In this document: positions 1 to 63,740 of the stretch, in pieces | Layout of the letters: the number at the start of each line of letters is the position of its first letter | Position numbering within the stretch: the stretch's first letter is position 1 | Source of the DNA: Octopus vulgaris | Lineage: Eukaryota | NCBI GenBank assembly: GCA_951406725.2 | Contig: OX597827.1 | Location: 67,518,001-67,582,000 of the forward strand | DNA: 64,000 bases | Direction: 5' to 3' | Position numbers and translations under genes: made by a program | Notes under the pieces: generated by a model | The model's database searches: none | What the model was told of the DNA's origin: nothing | What the model saw: the letters and a program-made list of their open reading frames with translations, nothing else

Positions 1-351
1 GCATATATACATATATACATATATACATATATATGTGTGTGTGTATGTATATATGTATCTATGTATGTATCTATGTACACAACTGGCCAAAATTTCGAAG
101 TCACTGTAAATAACCTTCAGCCGTGTTTGTTATGAATGTATTGTCACCATTAAAAGCGAAAGTTCTTCTCATGTGTCGTATACAAAAGCGATTAGTATAT
201 TTGCATTTGAATCTTCTGGGACGCATTAAGAACAGATATGCAAATCATTGTTCCAGATCTCGCTGTAGTCACTGCAAATAACGATTTCTTTTACAATACA
301 GGTCTTTCTATACACTGTGGTCAGAATACGACAATTCAGCAAGTATTTATA

Positions 352-5118: not shown

Positions 5119-5929
5119 CGTGGAGTGGACTGCTCAATGAGTATGCAGACTGCTGTCGTAGTAACAAAGTTAAAGTACGGTGGGTGAAGCAGCTTGGCAC
5201 ACATTGGCCTTGAACTCTGCTGAGCATGCGCACTAAGATTTAGCTTTCTAGCTCACTTCCGTTGTTTACAGCAGTGCTTGGAAGGAAGGTGTATAGCGTG
5301 TGATCATCGCATTGACCATCACAGTTTTCTAAAAGTTTTCATAATTTTCATCGTTCTCCATACAATCAACTGAAACCCGAGCGTCTTCTTGATCAGCTGA
5401 AAGCAGTTTTGGTCCAAACTTGGCAGACACGCGTCTCGTACCCAAATCTTCAGTGATAATGGACTGAACTGAATCGTAACTAATCTGCACATCCGCTGAT
5501 AAATTACAGATGGGGATTCCACGATTTTCCCTGACAGCTGCACGTACATCTGTAACGTTTTTCCCAGGTCTGATTGTTGCGAGTCTTCCAGAAAGTTCGC
5601 CAATGTCGACATTTTTTCGGAAACGTCTGAACCACTCGTACACTTGTGTGTGGTTCAAATACTTCTCTCTATTTACTTTCTGCAACTTTGCGTGGGACTC
5701 AGAGCAGATATCTCGATGACAGCTTTCTCTGTCAAGGTCAATGCGACGATCGCACGCTACACATCTTCCTTCCAAGCTCTGTTGTAAACGGCAGATTTGA
5801 GCTAGAACGTTGAAACTTAGTCCGCATGCAGAGCAGAGTTTAACGTCAACCTGAACTAAGTGGCTTTATTCTGCAAGCTTTTGCTTCGTTATTATGGCAA
5901 CAGTCTCTACACTTATTGATCAGACCTCG
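5119..5929 (-). mobile_element. mariner derivative with two inverted 5' ends and N-terminal transposase fragment
   Basis: ORF fragment VYEWFRRFRK..SGR..VQSIITEDLGTRRVSAKFGPKLL (mariner HTH/linker); about 200-bp diverged inverted arms; TA flanks. Confidence 0.8.
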
Positions 5930-24281: not shown

Positions 24282-24395
24282 TGTCTGTGTGTGTGTGTCT
24301 GTGTGTGTGTGTGTGTATTTGTGTGTGTGTGTGTGTGTTTATAATATTATTGTCTGGGAGGGTCATTCTCTTTCACTGCCTTCTTACTTTACACA

Positions 24396-24447
24396 CTCAC
24401 CGGTTCGATTTCCTGCTCGTTGCGTCTTGCACCCTCTTCATCAGAGA
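24396..24447 (-). ncRNA. Degenerate hammerhead motif in Penelope-like remnant
   Basis: Minus strand CTGATGAAGA..TCGAACCGGTGAG; one A of GAAA and the cleavage base appear lost. Confidence 0.35.
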
Positions 24448-24792
24448 ATATATATATTATTATCATGATATATGATAGTTATCATTGTTGATATATATAT
24501 ATACATAAACGGTTTAAGTAACTGAGATTCAAGTAAGTTCTAATGAATTCACATGAATATGGTCCTTAACTAGGATGGACCGGAAATCTATATGGTGTTA
24601 ACCATACGACAAGTGGGGTGATTACAAATAGGAAAAAATTCACTATGAACTATATATGGACAAGCACATATTCTGTAAGTTCAAGACCTTTCATCGGATC
24701 TCCAGGAATCGAACTTTCTTCAATGCAGTTAAACTCACACCCTCATTTGTATCTACCCCTTTTGATGTTTGGGAATCTCTGATGTTTTTTTT

Positions 24793-24876
24793 TCGGCTGA
24801 TGAGTACGAGCCACCTATATCTACTGCAATTTTTGTAGCTTATTAAAGATGTCCTCGTACGAAACAATTGTACCGA
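24793..24876 (+). ncRNA. Canonical minimal type I hammerhead ribozyme
   Basis: Stem I TCGG/CCGA; core CTGATGA; stem II GTACGAG/CTCGTAC (7 bp); GAAA; palindromic stem III ACAATTGT; GUA triplet, predicted cleavage after 24872. Confidence 0.8.
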
Positions 24877-24904: not shown

Positions 24905-24944
<40 letters not shown>

Positions 24945-31980: not shown

Positions 31981-32398
31981 TTGGGTTGTCCGGAAAGTTC
32001 GTGCCAATTTATAGTAGCTTACCTTTCGACTTATTTTAGAACATGGTTGAGTTCATAAAATAGGATTTGACTACACCTCCATTTAGAGCACAGTTTAAAC
32101 TATCTTTTCGTGGAAGAAGGTTTATGTTCCTATAACCTGTGTTAATTCTGTAACCCTTTAAAATGGAAGGTAAGAAAGTTCACTTTCGGCACTTGATGCT
32201 TTGGAAACCAGATAAAAATTGCTTCAGCTCGGCTGGGATGTGTTACCCCACCCTCCATATTCACCAGATATTGCTCCTTCGGATTTCCACTTATTCAGGT
32301 CTCTGCAGAAAAGTCTTAATGGTAAAACTTTTCAATTCCTTGGATGACGTAAAGAGAAACTTTGATGAATATATTCTTCCCAGAATTGAGGTGGTTTC
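31981..32398 (+). mobile_element. Second copy of the non-autonomous mariner, 3'-truncated with a short inversion
   Basis: Left TIR TTGGGTTGTCCGGAAAGTTCGTGCC; MEGKKVHFRHLML; same deletion junction as the 11240 copy. Confidence 0.88.
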
Positions 32399-32399
32399 T

Positions 32400-32770
32400 T
32401 GTGATGGCATCTGTTTCAAGACAGATGAATTGAGCCTATTCTTATGTTTTCAACGTAAATACTTGCGTTGTTAGCCTGGTTGGACATCCTAACGAAATAT
32501 ACTTGGACATGTGTTACGATTGCATATGGCACGATCAGTGAGACCCTTTCTCGAATGGAAGTCAAAGCTGGAGCGTTGGAGATGAAACAGTCCTTCCCGG
32601 CTATGATTGATTGATCACTACGAAGGAGATTAAAGTAGGTATGATCCTGGTCCGAGAGTAGGCTCGTGATAAAATCTCAGACCATACTAGGCAGATTTTC
32701 TCCCGATGACCGATGCTCAACGCTGATCAGGAGAAGCTAAACCTAAAACATACCACACTGCACTTAGAAC
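32400..32770 (+). mobile_element. Possible degenerate RTE-type LINE 3' fragment
   Basis: Translated pieces FQRKYLRC and LGHVLRL resemble the RTE ORF2 C-terminus. Confidence 0.3.
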
Positions 32771-41452: not shown

Positions 41453-41790
41453 GACTTTGCCTTTCATCCTATCGGGTTGATAAATTACGCACCAGTTACG
41501 CACTGGGGACGATATAATCGACTTAATCCATTTGTCTGTCCTTGTTTGTTCCCTCTGTGTGTGGCCCCATGTGGACAGTAAAGAAATAAGAATCTTTAGC
41601 ACGCCGGGGGGAATGCTTAGCGGTATTTCGTCTGTCTTTACCCTCTGAGTTCAAATTCCGCTGAGGTCGGCTTTGCCTTTCATCCTGTCGGGGTCGATTA
41701 ATTAAGTAACAGTTGCGTACTGGGGTCGATCTTATCGACTGGCCCCCTCCCCCAAAATTTCGGTCCTTGTGCCTAGTTTAGAAAAGAATA
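41453..41790 (+). mobile_element. SINE B composite of two units with different tails
   Basis: Same architecture as 29430-29745. Confidence 0.85.
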
Positions 41791-41799
41791 AAGAGTACC

Positions 41800-42250
41800 T
41801 TTGAAACTAATAAGAAAAATCAGCTAGATTATGACAGGGGGATAGCAGTTTATTTAATGCGGCTGCCTGTAGCTTCAACCACGACTTCAAGACGGCGCTG
41901 GAACCTCGCGCATGTGCACTGTGCCAGTTTATGATAATCATGAACATTTGGTCATTAAACCAAAATTCCGCCCATCTGTAAGAGATTAAACATTGAGATG
42001 CAGAACTCTTTTCTCTGGTAGAAGAATACATGCCAAAAGAGCCAGTATTACTCGAGAATTCCATCTTGCATTACTTAAGTTTGGTATTTTCAGAAACTTT
42101 ACTGTATAAAATTTGTCGGTTTCTTGAAATAAATGGAAAGTTCTGGTCAAATGAGATAGAAATTTCATGTCATCTCGCGATCCTACTGATTCAGTAATCT
42201 TCTCTTCACCATTGTCGAAATTAGCCTGAAGTGTCTCGTAATTACTCATA
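41800..42250 (-). mobile_element. DNA transposase remnant, hATm-like
   Basis: RDDMKFLSHLT..KIPNLSNARWNSRVILALL resembles the RDDY..HARW motifs of hATm-type transposases. Confidence 0.5.
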
Positions 42251-42269
42251 AGCTCTGGGATGAATGTAT

Positions 42270-42720
42270 ATTCAATATTAGGAGATGATTTTTCTCCAAG
42301 TTCATGTGTTCTGTATTCTTGAGAAAACCTTCGAATACCTCTTTGGGCTTAGCCACAAGCTCAACTTTTGTGTTGCATGCAGAGCAGTTGGTGTCATACT
42401 CAACTTCGCCCCGCATATGATGACGCCCAAGATTAATATTGTGAGAATTAGGAGACCAGAAATTGAGGTTGGTTGAAATTTTACGACTACTTCTAATTCT
42501 TTCCAGATGTATGGTTAAAAAGCATAATCCAGGTGCCACACAAGCAGCAACTCTCTCCAGCCAGTGTTTGACCACTGTCTCCAGTAGTTTCATTTACCCA
42601 TTTGTATTGAGCCGAGATTCCTGTTCACAGATGTTGACAAAATGGCGTCACCCTCACTGGAAATACACCCAAAGACCATTATTACCTGTGGCGACTTGGT
42701 TTTCATGACGTTCATGTCAT
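42270..42720 (-). mobile_element. maT (DD37D) transposase remnant
   Basis: VMKTKSPQVIMVFGCISSEGD, KLLETVVKHWLERVAA, FWSPNS..CNTKVELVAK. Confidence 0.75.
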
Positions 42721-42804
42721 GTCCTACAACCTTTACAGAGCATTAAACAGCAATCATGGTGGGCGTAGTTTAATACCTAGCGCGAATCTTCATACAACAG
42801 CTGA

Positions 42805-43225
42805 GTGGAGGCACAATAGGCCCAGTGGTTAGGACAGCGGACTTGCGGTCGTAAGTACGCGGTTTCGACTCCCGGTTCGGGCATCGTGAGTGTTTATTGA
42901 GCAAAAACACCTAAGCTCCACGATGCTCCGGCGGGGGGGAGAGTGGTGAGCCCCGCTGTACTTTTTCACCACAACCTTATCTCACTCTTTCTTCCTACTT
43001 CTTCCACAAAGCAGAGGAACCCGTTAAAAGCCACCTTTTACGGAATGAGGATAACAATGTAGCTTTTGCGCCCGTGCAACCGCCAGTCTATCGCGTGTGG
43101 TGGGTGGATCTTCAAAATGCCACACGCATTCTTAGTAGCTTAGAGTTGGCTCGAATTAGAGATTATTCTTTGTGGCTAATGGCGTGATTCCTGATTGGAA
43201 GAAGAAGAAGAAGAAGACGAAGAAC
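42805..43225 (+). mobile_element. Chimeric SINE: C head with tail F, (GAA)n end
   Basis: Same architecture as 20839-21360; possible short TSD AGCTGA. Confidence 0.85.
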
Positions 43226-43431
43226 AACAACAACAAAAGCTGATTCATTTCCAATATTCAGATGGCTTCCAGTCTTTTACATCAATTAGCTTTCTTAAAA
43301 AACTATGTTTATGCTCTTGGAAGCCGTTGACTGCTTACGTATACATCAAGCTGTTTTTAAAAACAAAGGAGACATAAGATAATTGTCAATTTTAGTCTTT
43401 ACACGCTGCATGCACACACAACACACACACG

Positions 43432-43463
<32 letters not shown>

Positions 43464-43539
43464 CTCTCTCTTCCGATGAAGTGCTATGACATTAGATTGC
43501 GAAATGTTATCACATCTTTTGAAACACCCGGTGTATATG

Positions 43540-43584
<45 letters not shown>

Positions 43585-43771
43585 CAACAATTGTCTAACA
43601 TCGATTATAACTTTTTTATAGAAAAACCTTAGCCTATCTGACAGCCGTTTCTGCTTCCAATATTCTATGGTGTTGCCATTGAAAAGTCTGAGAATAATAT
43701 TCGTCATATGACGAATATTTTATTCTTTTATTTTATTTTTTCATGAGATAAATACCTTAATGCCTCTGGTA

Positions 43772-43819
43772 GCCGTGGATAGCACTATTTCGTCCTCTTT
43801 CTGGACTCTTCAGCACAAC
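43772..43819 (-). ncRNA. Canonical minimal type I hammerhead ribozyme
   Basis: Minus strand GTTGTG-CTGAAGA-GTCC agaaaga GGAC-GAAA-TAGTGCTA-TC-CACGGC; 6-bp stem I with 2 GU pairs; AUC triplet; AATAAA signals downstream. Confidence 0.82.
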
Positions 43820-45105
43820 AAAACTCGAAACCTTAAAATTACTTACTCAAAATAGTTTCCACATACCTCTAAATTTCTCCGGAAAAGTACCAACATGGTG
43901 CATAATGTTATTGTATGCTCTTCTAGATTGGGAAGTGATTAATGTGTCCTTTTTGTGGATTGAATGATCTAACCTTTAGCGCGTAATCTCTATGTATCCC
44001 CCAATGCCTATCTTACTTTCAAAGAGATAAAAGCAAAAGTTTTACTTGGTATTTTCAATCGAACTATCCACATACTTCTAGATAAAAAAAATTAATTCGA
44101 TTTCATATTAACCTCTTTTAATATCTTCAAATATGCTGGCCATATTCATGCATTTGATTCAACTACCTTTTCTGCAAATGCTATGGAATTTCTTGATCTT
44201 TTTTAAACTATTCACCTGAAGCAATAAGACTTCCATTCATTTCCTCAGCTTCTACTTCTTGAGATTGTTAAAATAAATTCAAACCCTTTACTGGACATTA
44301 GCACGGTAGAATTATCAGTAACGCAAACATATCACCCACACAGACACTATTTTTTTCTTCATATTTCCCTGATTTTATTGTCTGTCTCTTTTAGTTTAGA
44401 AAAGTATGACGCTCACTTGAATTTTTCATGACAACTTTTGTATTAGCAATTGATTTATTACGGCTGTTAAAGCTGACAGTTCAAGTGCTAATGATTCACT
44501 ATCAAAACTTTTCTCTTTTCCGCTTTCCACTCTTTTTGTATTTTCTAGATATGTGTCCAGTGTTATTGTGTTACACTTGGGCGACACAAAAAATATAACA
44601 AGGTAACGGAATAATTTTTTTAAATAATAATACTTTAAAAAATTAAAAAGATTACCTCTCTTTGTGTACCAGCGAGAACTCCCTAATAACTAACACTCCA
44701 AAACTCAAAAATAAGCCAAAGGTTTCTGGTTTAATTTTTACTTTATTTCGTGCGTAAAAGATTAAGAGGAAACTTTATTAGAATTTTGAAATATAAATGG
44801 GAAATAAGTTCTGAGAACGGCCTTGTAAGTGAGGGTGTTAGTGTTCTTGGCTATTAAATAGTTGTAATATTGATTTCAAATTTTGGCACAAGGACAGCAG
44901 TTTTGGGGTAAAGGGATCAAGTGGATTACATCGCTTCCTATGCTCAACTGGTACTTATTTTACCGACCCATGCAGATGAAAAGCAAAATCGACCTTGGCG
45001 GAATTTGAACTCAGAAATTGAAGACGATTTTACTAACGATTTTCTCCTAACGATTTTACTAGCTCACCGCCTTAAATTGTTGCAAAGTTAAGTTTCATTT
45101 CGTTC

Positions 45106-45273
<168 letters not shown>

Positions 45274-45285
45274 TATACATATACA

Positions 45286-47528
45286 TGATTGATTGATTGA
45301 TTGATTGATTGATTCTAGTTTCAGCTATGAGCTGTGGCCATGCTGGGGCACCGCCATTTGGTGTTGCTACTTGGTTTCACTTCATGGAGGCTTTCTAGCA
45401 ACTGCTATTTGGTGCATGAGAGAGTCGATGCAGCTGCCCTCATCTGCCCCTCCTGCCGTGAAGTTGGTTCATCTGGGACACCTGACAGGAAGAGATCCAG
45501 CTTCATTTTAAAGACATCTGTATCCACCCCATGCAGGTCTCTCAGGTTCTTCGGGAGGATATTGAAGAGCTGTGGGCCTCGGAAGCCCAGGCTATCACAG
45601 TATCTTGTCCTACATCTTGATGGCAGGTTTGGAGTCCTAGGCACCACGCAGTGGCGCCCAGTTCTGGCATTTGCGTAACTCTCGATGCCAAAGTTCAGGA
45701 CACTTCCCTCCAGGATCTTCCAGATGTATATTATGGCATATCTTTCCCGCCTACGCTCCAGGGAATATAATTTTAATCTCTTGAGTCTTTCCCAGTAGCT
45801 TACATTCTGCATAGAGGCTATCTTCTTTGTGTAGCTTCGTTGGATCGCCTCAAGTTCTGTGATCAACTTGACACTGGATGGTGACCATAGCTGAGAGCAA
45901 TAGTCAAAGTGGCTTAGGACAAGTGTCTTCCAGAGGACCATCATGGTTTCTTGTTCTCTTGTTCTAAAGGTTCTAAGAATCCATCCAGCCAGCCGTCTAC
46001 ATTTCATTGTCAGTTTAGCAACATGTACATGAAAGGTCGCGTCATCACTCATGTGAATACCCAGGTCACGCACTGATTGTGCCTCTGGGATTGCAATCCC
46101 TCCGGGTCCAGTGTATTCATTGGGTATTGCATTCAGTTTTGCATGCTGATAGTATAAAGCTTGAAACTTTCCAGCATTGAACTGCATGCTATTCTTTTCA
46201 GCCCACTTGTATATTTCGTCTAGCTCACATTGCAGGTGTTTAGTGTCCTCAGGGTTCTGTATTGCCTGTGAAACTTTTGTATCATCTGCATAACTTGTGA
46301 TCGTGGCTCTCTGCGTGGCTGAGGGCATGTCTGAGAGGGCCATTATGAACAGTAGTGGTCCCAGAACAGTGCCCTGCGGAACACCGCTCACTATTTGTGT
46401 GTTAATGGAGGTGGCCCCATTGGCTACTACCACCTGACTTCTATCCTTCAGAAAGTCATGAAGCCATTCTCCCAGTTTTCCAACTATGTTGAGATCACGC
46501 AGTTTGTGACATATCATTCCATGATCGACTTTATCAAAGGCCTTTGCAAAGTCGAGATATATCACTTCCACATTTGAGTGGTTGAGCAGCCGTTTCAGCA
46601 CCCAGTCATAGTGTTGTAGGAGCTGAGTTAAACAGCTTCTCCCTGGTCGGAAACCATGTTGGGTGTCGGGCAGCAAGTCATTCTCTTCAAGGAAGGTGAT
46701 CAGCTTCCTTCTGACTATTCGTTCCATGACCTTGCTGATGTGTGAGGTCAGAGAGATAGGTCTATAGTTCTTGGCTTCCGCTCTGCTACCTCCTTTATGA
46801 ATGGGGCATATTTTACCTTCCTTCAGTTTTCCTGGAAGTTTGCCAGCTGCAAGGAAGCTCTGAAAGAGGAACTGCAGTGGTCTTGCTAGGACTCTCTTAC
46901 ATGCTTTTAGGAGGATTGCCGGGAATCCATCGGGGCCAGTAGCTGAGTCTGTTTTCATTTCATCTATAGCCTTGGTTACATCGTCTTCATTTATATCGAT
47001 GTAATCTATCGTCGCCGCCTCTGATTTTATATCTGCAGTGGTAAAAAAGTCAGTTGGATTGGTGATTTGGAGATGCCCAAGGGGTGGAGTGAAAACACTC
47101 TTGAATTGTTCATTCAGTATTTCACTTACCCTCATTGGTTTTCCTGTAAGTGTGCCATCCTTTTCGAGGAGTGGCCCTATTCTACAGTGCACTGTAGCTG
47201 TTTCTTTGGCATACCTGTAGAAAGCTCTGGGGTTAGATTTTATGTTTTCTATAGCCCAGGCTTCTTTGTCTGCTCTTTCTTTTTCATGGGAGAGTTGCAG
47301 ACATTTTTCGATTTCCAACAGTTTTATTTTTAGGCGGGACTTTTCACTGCTTTCAATCTGTTTGTTTAGGCGATTTGAAAATTTCGTACGCCGTCTCATT
47401 AAAATTTTCCTCTCTCTGGGGATTTTGTTCTTGTGTACAGTGGCCTTTCTCTCTGGGACACATTTGTAGCATATGGCTTGCATTACAGACATGAATTGTT
47501 GAAGTTTCACGTCGATGTCTGGCGACAT
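45286..47528 (-). mobile_element. 5'-truncated CR1-clade-like LINE with 3' UTR and (AATC)n tail
   Basis: Complete RT domain, 3' UTR, (AATC)n tail at 45286-45312, inserted in (TA)n. Confidence 0.92.
45405..47528 (-). CDS. LINE ORF2 reverse transcriptase (no endonuclease domain; about 707 open codons)
   Basis: NYRPISLTS, QHGFRPGRSC, YLDFAKAFDKV, GVPQGTVLGPLLF, YADD, RDLG, LERRR; the first ~39 aa of the ORF-track call are SINE/microsatellite. Confidence 0.9.
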   Translation of the reverse strand: MSPDIDVKLQQFMSVMQAICYKCVPERKATVHKNKIPRERKILMRRRTKFSNRLNKQIESSEKSRLKIKLLEIEKCLQLSHEKERADKEAWAIENIKSNPRAFYRYAKETATVHCRIGPLLEKDGTLTGKPMRVSEILNEQFKSVFTPPLGHLQITNPTDFFTTADIKSEAATIDYIDINEDDVTKAIDEMKTDSATGPDGFPAILLKACKRVLARPLQFLFQSFLAAGKLPGKLKEGKICPIHKGGSRAEAKNYRPISLTSHISKVMERIVRRKLITFLEENDLLPDTQHGFRPGRSCLTQLLQHYDWVLKRLLNHSNVEVIYLDFAKAFDKVDHGMICHKLRDLNIVGKLGEWLHDFLKDRSQVVVANGATSINTQIVSGVPQGTVLGPLLFIMALSDMPSATQRATITSYADDTKVSQAIQNPEDTKHLQCELDEIYKWAEKNSMQFNAGKFQALYYQHAKLNAIPNEYTGPGGIAIPEAQSVRDLGIHMSDDATFHVHVAKLTMKCRRLAGWILRTFRTREQETMMVLWKTLVLSHFDYCSQLWSPSSVKLITELEAIQRSYTKKIASMQNVSYWERLKRLKLYSLERRRERYAIIYIWKILEGSVLNFGIESYANARTGRHCVVPRTPNLPSRCRTRYCDSLGFRGPQLFNILPKNLRDLHGVDTDVFKMKLDLFLSGVPDEPTSRQEGQMRAAASTLSCTK

Positions 47529-47539
47529 ATATATATATG

Positions 47540-47924
47540 TGTGGAGGCGCAATGGCCCAGTGGTTAGGGCAGCGGACTCGCGGTCATAGGATCGCGGTTT
47601 CGATTCCCAGACCGGGCGTTGTGAGTGTTTATTGAGCGAAAACACCTAAAGCTCCATGAGGCTCCGATAAAGGGTGGTGGCGAACCCTGCTGTATTCTTT
47701 CATCACAACTTTCTCTCACTCTTACTTCCTGTTTCTGTTGTACCTGTATTTGAAAGGGCCGGCCTTGTCACTCTCTGTGTCACGCTGAATATCCCCGAGA
47801 ACTACGTTAAGGGTACACGTGTCTGTGGAGTGCTCAGCCACTTACACGTTAATTTCACGAGCAGGCTGTTCCGTTGATTCGGATCAACCGGAACCCTCAT
47901 CGTTGTCACCGACGGAGTGCTTCC
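47540..47924 (+). mobile_element. SINE family C, full length
   Basis: Matches the 10585 copy; sits at the LINE 5' truncation point. Confidence 0.92.
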
Positions 47925-50468: not shown

Positions 50469-51600
50469 CAGGCTGAGTAAAAAGTAAGCAACGTTTTGAA
50501 ACATGAAATTTATAACAATATATTTGAACTATACGGAAATTATTTTCATCAAATTAAGTACCATTACAATTAACACGTTTTTGCCAACGAGTTACAAGTT
50601 TGTTTATTCCGGTAACATAAAAATCGGGAGTTCTGGAGCTGATGAATTCTCTGAGTGCACTTTTAGCATCGGTTTGATTTTTGCACTCCTCTCGCAAGAA
50701 ATCCTCCAAGTGCTTGGAAAAGTGATAGTCGTAGGAGAAAGGTCTGGGGAATAAGCTGGGTGGGGAAGAACTTTGTAGCCAATTTCCCTCAATTTCTGGA
50801 GCGTTATTAGTGAAACGTGGGATCGAGCATTGTCATGAAGAATTATTGGCCCTCTTCTGTTGAGCAGTCTGGGACGGAGAAGTAGCAATTTTTCGTTCAT
50901 TTTGGCAATTTCATGGCAATATGTTTCTGCAGTAATGGTGTTTCTGGATTTTAAGAAGTTATTGTGGATGAGTCCATGCAACAGTACACCACCAAGCACT
51001 CACCATAACGTTCTTCTTGAAGAGCTCAAGTTCAGGGAAAGTTTTTGGTGTTTCATTCTGGTCCAACCACTGCGAAGAAGTTTTTTTTTTTTCGTACAGA
51101 ATACACTTTTCATCGACAGTTACAATAGGTCTGGTAGCTGAGAAGAAGCGACGAGCAAATTTCATATTTGCGCGTTTTCTTATTTTCATTCAAATTGTGT
51201 GGTGCCCATTTGTCGAGCTTTTTTGATTTTCCGATCACATGCAAATGGTTGCAGGCAATTTTCTGGCCAACTTCAAGTTCTCTCACCAGTTCAGTTCTCG
51301 AGTGGTTTTGCGTAGATCTTTCTGAGTGACGATCAACTAAAGACCGTCATTAGTTGACCGTCATTGATGACAGATAGGCGTCCACTACGCGCATGATCTT
51401 CAAGTCTCAGTCTCAGGTCTCCACTGCAAAATCGTTTAAACCATTTTCACACTGACCGCTCTCTGGTAATTTCCTCATCAAACGTTTCGTCGATATCGCG
51501 AGCAATTTCAGTTGCTTTACGTCCTTTATTGAAGTTGAATAGCTAAATTTCTCGAACATCTCGCTTTGATAGTTCCATTTCAGATTATTGTAACAACGAG
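50469..51600 (-). pseudogene. mariner (DD34D, Hsmar1/Mos1-like) transposase pseudogene
   Basis: MELSKRDVRE..KWFKRFCSGD; IVTVDEK; ILHDNARSH; VLPHPAYSPDLSPT; multiple stops and frameshifts. Confidence 0.88.
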
Positions 51601-62304: not shown

Positions 62305-63740
62305 TTATGCTTGACTTTTGCTTTACATTTGTGCAAGTTGGCTCCAAGTCTCACCCAGAGATCTCAAGAGACAATAAGCTGGAAGTTCATGTTGGTGTTA
62401 TGCCTAGGATGCCATATATTCGGTTTTGTACATAGTTTTGTTCTAGAGAATGTTTAAGAAACCATAAGAAAATTATGTTTGTTTTAAAACTTAAGATGAC
62501 ATAGAAAGTATTTTGCGTAGGATATGGGTAGTTCCCATGAGCACTATCTTTTGAATTTCTGCCATTTTTGGGTTCCCTGGTATCTGAGCTTGTTTTAGTC
62601 TTCAGGTTCCACATTTTGCTAATTTCTATTTCAAGATCTTTATACTTGCTCATTTTTTGATATGTCTTGACAGATACGTTTATATCGATTGGGACAGTCA
62701 TATCAATGAGGAAGCATGATTTTTGTCTGAAGTCTTTCAATATGATGGCTGGCCTATTAGCATCCATCTTTCTGTCAGTTTGAATGATGAAGTTCCAGAG
62801 GAGTGAGATGTGATCATTTTCAAGCAATGTAGGTGGTTTGTGTTCCAAGCAGTTTTTATCACGGAGCAAGTCCAGGTTTTTGCAAATTACCCAGTGAATA
62901 TATTGTGCAGCTCTATCATGCCTGTTGAGATACTCTGTAGGCGCAAGAAGACTGCACATGGAGACAACATGATCAATGGTTTTATTTTGTTAACATACAT
63001 GGTATGTTGTGCTACTGCCTATCTTTAATAAGTTGGCCTGGTAGTTCCTTGTAGGCAGGAATTGATCTTGGGATGCAATGATAAACCCTTCTGTTTCAGA
63101 TTTCAAGCCAAAAGCCACTAGCCATTGGCTTTATCAACATCGGCATTATTCCCTCTCTTTGGTTATTTGCTACTGAGAGATTTTTCTTGCCATTTATCAG
63201 TAACTAGCAGTATCGCCCGGCGTTGCTCAGGTTTATAAGGGAAATAACTATAAAGAATTTTTAGAGAGTTATAGCCAAAAAATAGCAAAAACATGGAAAA
63301 AAATGATGGTAAATTTTTTTTTGAGATTTAAAAAAGGTGGAGTTGCGTCCCCCAGACAGTTTGTGGTTCGTGTTTCTGATTCTCGACCCCATGTCGAATT
63401 TATCGATTTTTTTCAGAACTGGGGGAACTTTTCAAAATTTTCGCTGCGTTAGTTTTGAATTATGCCATTGGGCTATGTGTGTGTCAAGTTTCATCAGAAT
63501 CGGTTGAAAGCCGTGGTCAGGGTGAGGGTACAAGCAAACAGACACACAGAAACACGCACAGACAAACTGCCGTTTATATAGAGAGAGATAATATCTAAAA
63601 CAGAAGTTTTGGCACATGTTTTCATGTGCTTAGCTTTTTCTGCGCTTGTTTCTAATATGTATAATTCCGAAATTTGTTGTATTTGGAATTCACTTACATA
63701 TTCTTTTGCCTATTTTGTTACAGATTATGATGCTTTCTTG
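62264..63740 (-). mobile_element. R4/Dong-clade LINE (restriction-like endonuclease), 5'-truncated, (TAA)n tail, interrupted by a Helitron
   Basis: GLKSETEGFIIASQDQ, CSLLAPTEYLNRHD, NRPAII..LIDMTVP..KYKDLEIEISKMW; (TAA)n at 62264-62303. Confidence 0.88.
63204..63588 (-). mobile_element. Non-autonomous Helitron
   Basis: Minus strand 5' TC, 3' hairpin CCTGAGCAACGCCGGG then CTAG; inserted between A and T with no TSD; removal restores the host LINE frame. Confidence 0.85.

Follow-up and report, generated by a model that had tools for sequence, protein, structure and literature searches.

Which kind of element left a hammerhead ribozyme on the minus strand of this octopus DNA, and how would such a ribozyme cut? 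The stretch analysed here (the window, 64,000 nucleotides) is repeat-rich animal DNA, and an earlier note, made from the letters alone, had proposed an intact ribozyme at 43772-43819(-). Each part named there was located in the sequence: the conserved core on the minus strand (CUGAAGA, GAAA and AUC), stem II (GUCC/GGAC), a 6-bp stem I and a near-palindromic stem III. The motif and its surroundings comprise the following features.

43772..43819, minus strand: type I hammerhead ribozyme with an intact core (sequence; RF00163 at 24 bits; shuffles)
43779..43788, minus strand: self-complementary stem III strand of 10 nt, predicted to form 4 bp with a 2-nt loop within one molecule and a 10-bp helix between two (minimum-energy structure of the cofold)
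43744..43849, minus strand: long imperfect hairpin extending stem I past an internal loop (predicted fold; z only -1.16)
43720..43745, minus strand: A-rich tract with three AATAAA hexamers (sequence)
43696..43719, no strand: perfect 24-bp palindrome (sequence)
43623..43712, minus strand: high-copy 3' segment that contains a hairpin and, without CUGANGA, a hammerhead-like half core (contig depth; half-core scan)
43534..43580, no strand: TA microsatellite that borders the repeat on its 3' side and probably was the insertion target (sequence)
43877..44790, no strand: single-copy flank upstream of the ribozyme with no recognised frame, probably outside the element (flat depth; organism E contig)

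The features by which a type I hammerhead is recognised (a CUGANGA core, GAAA, NUH, three helices and an open end at helix I) are all present. Stem I pairs 43819-43814 (5' strand) with 43777-43772 (3' strand) and has 6 bp, two of them G-U. The core CUGAAGA lies at 43813-43807 and GAAA at 43791-43788; between them, stem II has 4 bp (GUCC at 43806-43803 and GGAC at 43795-43792) and a 7-nt loop. C17 is 43778, in the AUC triplet, and the predicted cut falls between 43778 and 43777, in agreement with the position given in the earlier note. That note had spoken of a minimal type I hammerhead. The ribozyme is of type I, but its helix sizes are those of the 'canonical' form and not of the 'min-HHR' as described in the available part of PMC4209133 (Cervera and De la Pena 2014): in min-HHRs, helix II has 7-8 bp, helix I has 4-5 bp and an additional base usually sits between positions 9 and 10.1, whereas the helices here have 4 bp and 6 bp and there is no extra base.

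How far does this motif stand out from chance? The Rfam hammerhead models, to which the earlier note had looked for a check, gave a divided answer. RF00163 (Hammerhead_1) covers the motif at full length (model positions 1-45 of 45; E 0.002 with 601 bases searched), but at 24 bits the match lies under the gathering score of 34 bits, and at gathering level Rfam had no match in the whole window. A descriptor that was composed after the motif had been seen matched the real window twice with a stem I of at least 4 bp; when the window was shuffled block-wise 3,640 times with its dinucleotides preserved, the same descriptor gave six such matches in total, and the combination of a 6-bp stem I with a self-complementary strand of at least 8 nt occurred in none of the 3,640. 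The fold energy of the motif is ordinary (z -0.52), so the evidence for a ribozyme is its core and stem geometry, not its stability. By its sequence, and by its predicted way of working, the motif belongs among the dimer-dependent type I hammerheads.

The dependence on a dimer, which the earlier note had claimed for hammerheads of this build and which Lunse et al. reportedly studied by dimer cleavage, was supported by predicted folding. The 48-base motif alone was predicted to form an inactive hairpin (-10.4 kcal/mol, versus -5.1 to -6.8 kcal/mol for the ribozyme fold), where the stem III strand is taken up by the 5' strand of stem I together with the first bases of the core. When natural flank (0 to 190 bases) was included, the pairs of the active stem I in the monomer had a probability of 0.05-0.27, and those of the rival hairpin 0.72-0.94. 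Two cofolded copies formed the double hammerhead (-25.2 versus -20.8 kcal/mol for two monomers); it was the minimum-energy structure at all four lengths tried, and with 0-45 bases of flank (four lengths) the dimer was better than two monomers by 4.4-7.8 kcal/mol. These calculations, made without tertiary contacts or magnesium, predict that one copy takes an inactive shape, whereas two copies form a double hammerhead through the self-complementary stem III. This result fits the published view, in the available parts of PMC4209133 and PMC6765202, that ribozymes of this kind work as dimers and slowly.

The ribozyme sits inside a roughly 270-base repeat (about 43582-43850), which contains no reading frame and abuts the TA microsatellite. 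A (TA)n insertion feature is thus present as a TA tract (43534-43580) at the 3' end; there is none at the 5' boundary, the position of which is uncertain. In run X17, one related end likewise enters TA repeats (a loose end before 43623, three contigs). We found no second copy or tandem unit of the repeat in 42000-46000 or in the window as a whole, and hence no partial tandem (pseudo-LTR) or inverted 5'-truncated partner, an arrangement that is optional in truncated copies.

Downstream of the ribozyme, the earlier note had pointed to AATAAA signals and to a perfect palindrome. The hexamers exist, at 43737, 43732 and 43724(-), against 0.2 that the average of the window predicts for 190 bases; all three lie inside one A-rich tract, however, so their role as signals is unproven. 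The 24-bp palindrome at 43696-43719 was verified in the sequence and is the sole perfect palindrome of at least 18 bases in the window outside TA runs. Related copies appear to have a different, imperfect sequence at this site (loose ends behind 43682 in 18, 11, 20 and 3 contigs). Beyond it, the half core on the minus strand consists of a hairpin within 43640-43690, GAAA at 43651-43648, a self-complementary strand to 43641 and a C at 43640, with UC. The commonest variant at 43662 converts a G-U pair of its hairpin to G-C (contigs, by hand), and one related copy (one contig) has a perfect palindrome at the half-core site. A scan of the window returned 11 half cores, including the two full ribozymes (the other is described below), so the downstream half core may be a decayed ribozyme or chance. 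Pairing in cis between the ribozyme and this half core was considered and rejected, as stem III could pair but stem I cannot (by hand).

To ask how widely the repeat occurs, contigs of four runs, three of DNA type (organisms A, D and E) and one guessed to be RNA, were aligned to 43590-44790 at 80% likeness, with 43713-43745 (33 bases) skipped as repeat. Part of 43600-44600 was found in 20 of the 24 runs listed, and half or more of it in eight of the 24, from organisms A-D; organism E had a small share. Summed contig depth, which is not the same as copy number, was flat over 43877-44790 in the three DNA-type runs. Relative to this flank, all three runs had 8-20 times the depth over the ribozyme and 112-271 times over 43631-43671, in the 3' part. 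The stretch of about 43582-43850 is a dispersed repeat in single-copy surroundings, and the related copies that the earlier note had led one to expect were found as multi-copy sequences in contigs of three organisms. A single-copy flank, a multi-copy ribozyme and a depth that rises 3'-ward in all three DNA-type runs fit 5' truncation, although divergence of more than 20% would look the same as the 5'-ward fall in depth.

Among the contigs listed, those from other loci differ from the window at 8-15 letters in 79-88 over the ribozyme, and most continue into hundreds of unlike bases; the ribozyme stretch is the similarity peak among related copies. Upstream, 17 of 30 positions in the loose ends of run X17 are identical to the window (by hand), which indicates that the repeat family reaches further 5' but has diverged. 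In one frame, these ends faintly resemble the last residues of Hydra frames, too weakly to count. Where loose ends fall in stem I, their changes still pair with the partner strand of this copy (by hand; the contigs' own partner strands are not displayed). Among the joints listed for the four runs, none goes back, and no contig among those listed bridges the ribozyme part and the high-copy 3' part at another locus, 43713-43745 being skipped. The locus itself occurs in organisms A and D. In organism E, one orthologous flank contig matches 43928-44790 and then carries 138 unmatched bases, which may mark an empty site or an indel. One contig from the run guessed to be RNA, which may be DNA, is identical over 43746-43878, including the cut site; it proves neither transcription nor cleavage.

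Is there a reading frame of the carrier nearby? The earlier note had recognised no Penelope ORF beside the ribozyme, and Pfam, protein and motif searches likewise found none. With stops read as X, the six frames of 41500-45400 contained no Penelope frame or remnant by Pfam. Stop codons in three upstream frames number 17, 12 and 11 against 15 expected, a chance density that gives no coding signal upstream. A profile search of one upstream frame against 1.84 billion proteins returned one spurious repeat match only: the match to P0001 (E 1.8e-11) adds up 12 copies of a 59-residue repeat that are 23% identical, and the best single copy has an E of 0.002. A word search with a second frame returned nothing, and a third was compared with Pfam only. 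Short Penelope protein motifs formed no cluster near the ribozyme. The lack of an RT/GIY-YIG ORF at the ribozyme locus is as expected of a 5'-truncated copy.

Other mobile-element remains lie elsewhere in the window. A LINE reverse transcriptase frame at 45405-47645(-) runs for 746 uninterrupted codons (Pfam RVT_1, E 1e-30); its protein is 89% identical to an unnamed protein, and its best named relative, from Argonauta hians, is 59% identical, which makes an octopod the most likely host. A mariner-type transposase fragment (Pfam Transposase_1) lies at 50604-50999(-), with similar sequence, by eye, near 5329-5865 and 32154-32474. The 200-codon frame at 62387-62989(-) has no Pfam match; we take it to resemble the C-terminal restriction-like nuclease of a site-specific non-LTR element.

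Hammerheads of similar build were also found elsewhere. The exact-core pattern had no matches in metagenome contigs, whereas a looser pattern matched 17 loci, none of which is similar to the window beyond the ribozyme. Sixteen of them (L001-L016) are one repeat family in two assemblies of another host. Each carries one ribozyme in a dispersed repeat of at least 200 bases, with shared sequence extending 1-248 bases upstream and variable 5' ends, and in 8 of the 16 a TA run lies within 40 bases 3' of the ribozyme; two loci have fewer than 20 bases downstream, and two pairs each represent a single site that is present in both assemblies. No ORF was seen in these loci. They show that a hammerhead build like that in the window travels in TA-targeting dispersed repeats. 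The remaining locus, L017, is a lone motif and the nearest to the ribozyme in the window: 43 bases align at 84%, with differences in both strands of stem I and of stem III. It is a canonical type I hammerhead at 120-153(-) with a long extended stem I and a fold z of -3.4, and it overlaps, in antisense, a leucine-rich-repeat-like frame.

In viral contigs, one locus matched, a 359-base record (L018) that is presumably a plant satellite RNA with another topology; alignment A1 and model R1 included this record, and it was dropped from the covariation count. That count used 12 of the 17 metagenome-plus-window motifs, the others being near-duplicates by eye. Six pairs change on both sides, and one of 500 shuffles scored as high; the 12 motifs represent three independent lineages, stems II and III are fixed by the pattern, and the likeness does not imply homology. 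A search of the window with model R1 yielded no other convincing copy (the next best match had E 0.19) and overlooked the long-stem ribozyme at 24793.

This second intact hammerhead, at 24793-24876(+), has the Penelope min-HHR build: a 4-bp stem I, CUGAUGA, a 7-bp stem II with a long structured loop, GAAA, a perfect 8-nt palindrome and a GUA triplet, with a predicted cut after 24872. Rfam had no match to it. Its dimer fold is -40.0 kcal/mol, versus -31.2 kcal/mol for two monomers, and it lies inside a piece of about 400 bases between TA runs (about 24490-24503 and 24909-24941). Two possible decayed cores were seen by eye at 24395-24450(-) and 24550-24600(+). A second Penelope-type hammerhead in the same 64 kb indicates that such motifs are common here.

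What, then, carried the ribozyme at 43772-43819? We think that it is probably the tail of a 5'-truncated Penelope-like element, in which it would cut tandem transcripts as a dimer. The closest match for the carrier is the Hydra clade, with Neptune also possible. On this reading, about 43582-43850(-) would be the 3' end of the retroelement, the 5' side of which would have been lost during target-primed reverse transcription as it inserted at the TA microsatellite. A full or tandem element transcript would carry two copies of the 3' end. A lone copy, unable to close stem III with its 2-nt loop, would fall into the inactive hairpin, whereas two copies could pair by the self-complementary strand, form the double hammerhead and be cut after the AUC triplet. 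Cutting would release unit-length RNA, which the reverse transcriptase of the element would then copy. The lone copy seen here, with no partner in cis, is by the predicted folds probably a silent relic that would cut only if two transcripts met.

Several observations support this Penelope reading. The TA tract at the 3' end points to the Hydra clade: of the 27 Hydra-clade families in the available part of the PMC8557442 supplement (Craig et al. 2021), 26 prefer (TA)n, and one family is from Octopus bimaculoides. The host is an octopod, and Penelope-like elements are abundant and still active in Octopus vulgaris, with 31 recently active families (PMC13282606); the word 'ribozyme' is absent from the main text of that paper in its available part, and its repeat library may include the family in the window. 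L001-L016, dispersed as single copies that vary at the 5' end and lie close to a TA run in 8 of 16 cases, are in line with such an element, as are the predicted inactive monomer and favoured dimer. Most Penelope ribozymes in a genome are lone motifs of truncated copies (PMC4209133, available part), and a type I ribozyme with a palindromic stem III near the 3' end is itself a Penelope-like feature. Against the Penelope reading, no frame was found upstream in the searches above, and the carrier ORF was never observed. Moreover, the helix sizes are canonical, a form tied mostly to retrozymes in the available part of PMC7229834, and the ribozyme of the octopus Hydra family differs in sequence.

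The canonical 6-bp/4-bp geometry, together with the extended stem I, is what recommends another reading, which we hold to be possible but unlikely: a lone monomer of a non-autonomous, retrozyme-like family with a non-coding unit of about 270-350 bases that stands in tandem elsewhere. Transcripts of such units would be cleaved into monomers by the ribozyme acting as a dimer and would then become circles, which Penelope proteins would reinsert. The size of the repeat falls within the 150-450 bp of animal retrozymes (PMC7229834, available part), no ORF was found in the non-coding unit, and dispersed retrozyme monomers are common according to the available part of a preprint (Li, Clavereau and Pollet 2026, bioRxiv 10.64898/2026.07.22.740005), which argues that retrozymes derive from Penelope ends. 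If so, both leading readings rest on Penelope machinery. The identical contig from the run guessed to be RNA would suit a transcribed family, but it is continuous across the cut site, and the run is possibly DNA. Tandem 150-450 bp repeats are absent from the locus (42000-46000) and the window, no joint going back was listed for the four runs, the copies differ by 8-15 letters in 79-88, and depth drops steeply 5'-ward and is not flat over a unit. A more elaborate form of this idea is a long shot: a short, non-coding, TA-targeting octopod retrozyme family, present in several species and transcribed, in which a dimer-dependent hammerhead is joined to a conserved and far more abundant downstream half-hammerhead that would serve as a dimerisation handle or a trans-cut substrate.

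The roughly tenfold difference in depth between the two parts of the repeat raises the question of whether they belong together. It seems doubtful to us that they are two adjacent insertions, a ribozyme piece (about 43720-43850) with an A-rich tail next to a high-copy repeat (43582-43719) of unrelated origin, which might be the terminus of a different Penelope family whose ribozyme has decayed. An A-rich tract does separate the parts, the 3' part has its own half core, Penelope elements insert beside each other (PMC6765202, available part), and no contig of another locus among those listed bridges both; the gap, however, coincides exactly with the 33 skipped bases, so linkage is undetectable among these contigs, and 5' truncation yields the same depth profile. 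It is highly improbable that the ribozyme was recruited by the host to process a transcript at this site whose polyadenylation would be signalled by the AATAAA hexamers. The core is intact, the locus occurs in organisms A and D and the exact contig from the guessed-RNA run covers the motif (weak evidence), but the repeat is multi-copy, no gene is recognised nearby and the monomer is predicted to be inactive. In addition, the organism E flank contig stops matching at 43928, 138 bases before its end, and the element may be absent there. A chance match would accommodate the score under the Rfam gathering level and the ordinary fold energy; it is excluded in practice by the empty result in 3,640 shuffles and by the similarity peak at the ribozyme.

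The ribozyme is of little import alone, as hammerheads with a palindromic stem III are standard parts of Penelope-like elements and their derivatives and number thousands per animal genome. Its modest value is that it flags a family of octopod Penelope elements for which we found no description in the literature, and that it is, by predicted folding, a clean natural monomer-off, dimer-on switch in shape. It would gain importance only if the family turned out to be a cephalopod retrozyme expressed as circular RNA, or if the abundant half core were functional.

Among known systems, RF00163 Hammerhead_1 (the Schistosoma/newt type) shares the core and the GUCC/GGAC stem II and matches at full length, but the ribozyme in the window has a different loop 2 and a longer stem III, and scores 24 bits against a cut-off of 34. 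Animal non-LTR retrozymes, as described in the available parts of PMC7229834 (Cervera and De la Pena 2020) and the 2026 preprint, have the same canonical type I geometry; canonical 6-bp/4-bp ribozymes belong mostly to tandem retrozymes (PMC7229834). They resemble the repeat in the window in being non-coding, AT-rich units of a few hundred bases and are thought to use Penelope proteins. By contrast, no tandem array was seen in the window, and stem III is longer than the 1-2 bp typical of retrozymes (PMC7229834). The metazoan Penelope ribozymes in the available part of PMC4209133 share the palindromic stem III and the dimer-dependent design, and they too occur as dispersed lone motifs with high divergence between copies.

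The Hydra-clade Penelope families offer the fullest comparison, drawn from the available part of PMC8557442, the only report of an octopus hammerhead that we found in the literature. The ribozyme in the window differs in sequence from Hydra-1_Obim, its repeat has no visible ORF, unlike the Hydra-clade families, and its distance of about 260 bases from the 3' end is longer than in most families listed (by hand). Five short motifs (four from the window and one from a related copy) had no matches in the supplement, where long runs are cut or wrapped and a miss is therefore weak. In build, however, the two are alike: Hydra-clade hammerheads are of type I with a short helix II possible, and a 4-bp stem III with a 1-2 nt loop is common to both. 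In six of the 26 Hydra ribozyme rows (counted by hand), stem III consists of 4 bp and a 2-nt loop, and in one, Penelope-2_SK, the loop is likewise UG. Like the repeat in the window, the clade targets (TA)n, carries its ribozyme no more than a few hundred bases from the 3' end and is present in Octopus.
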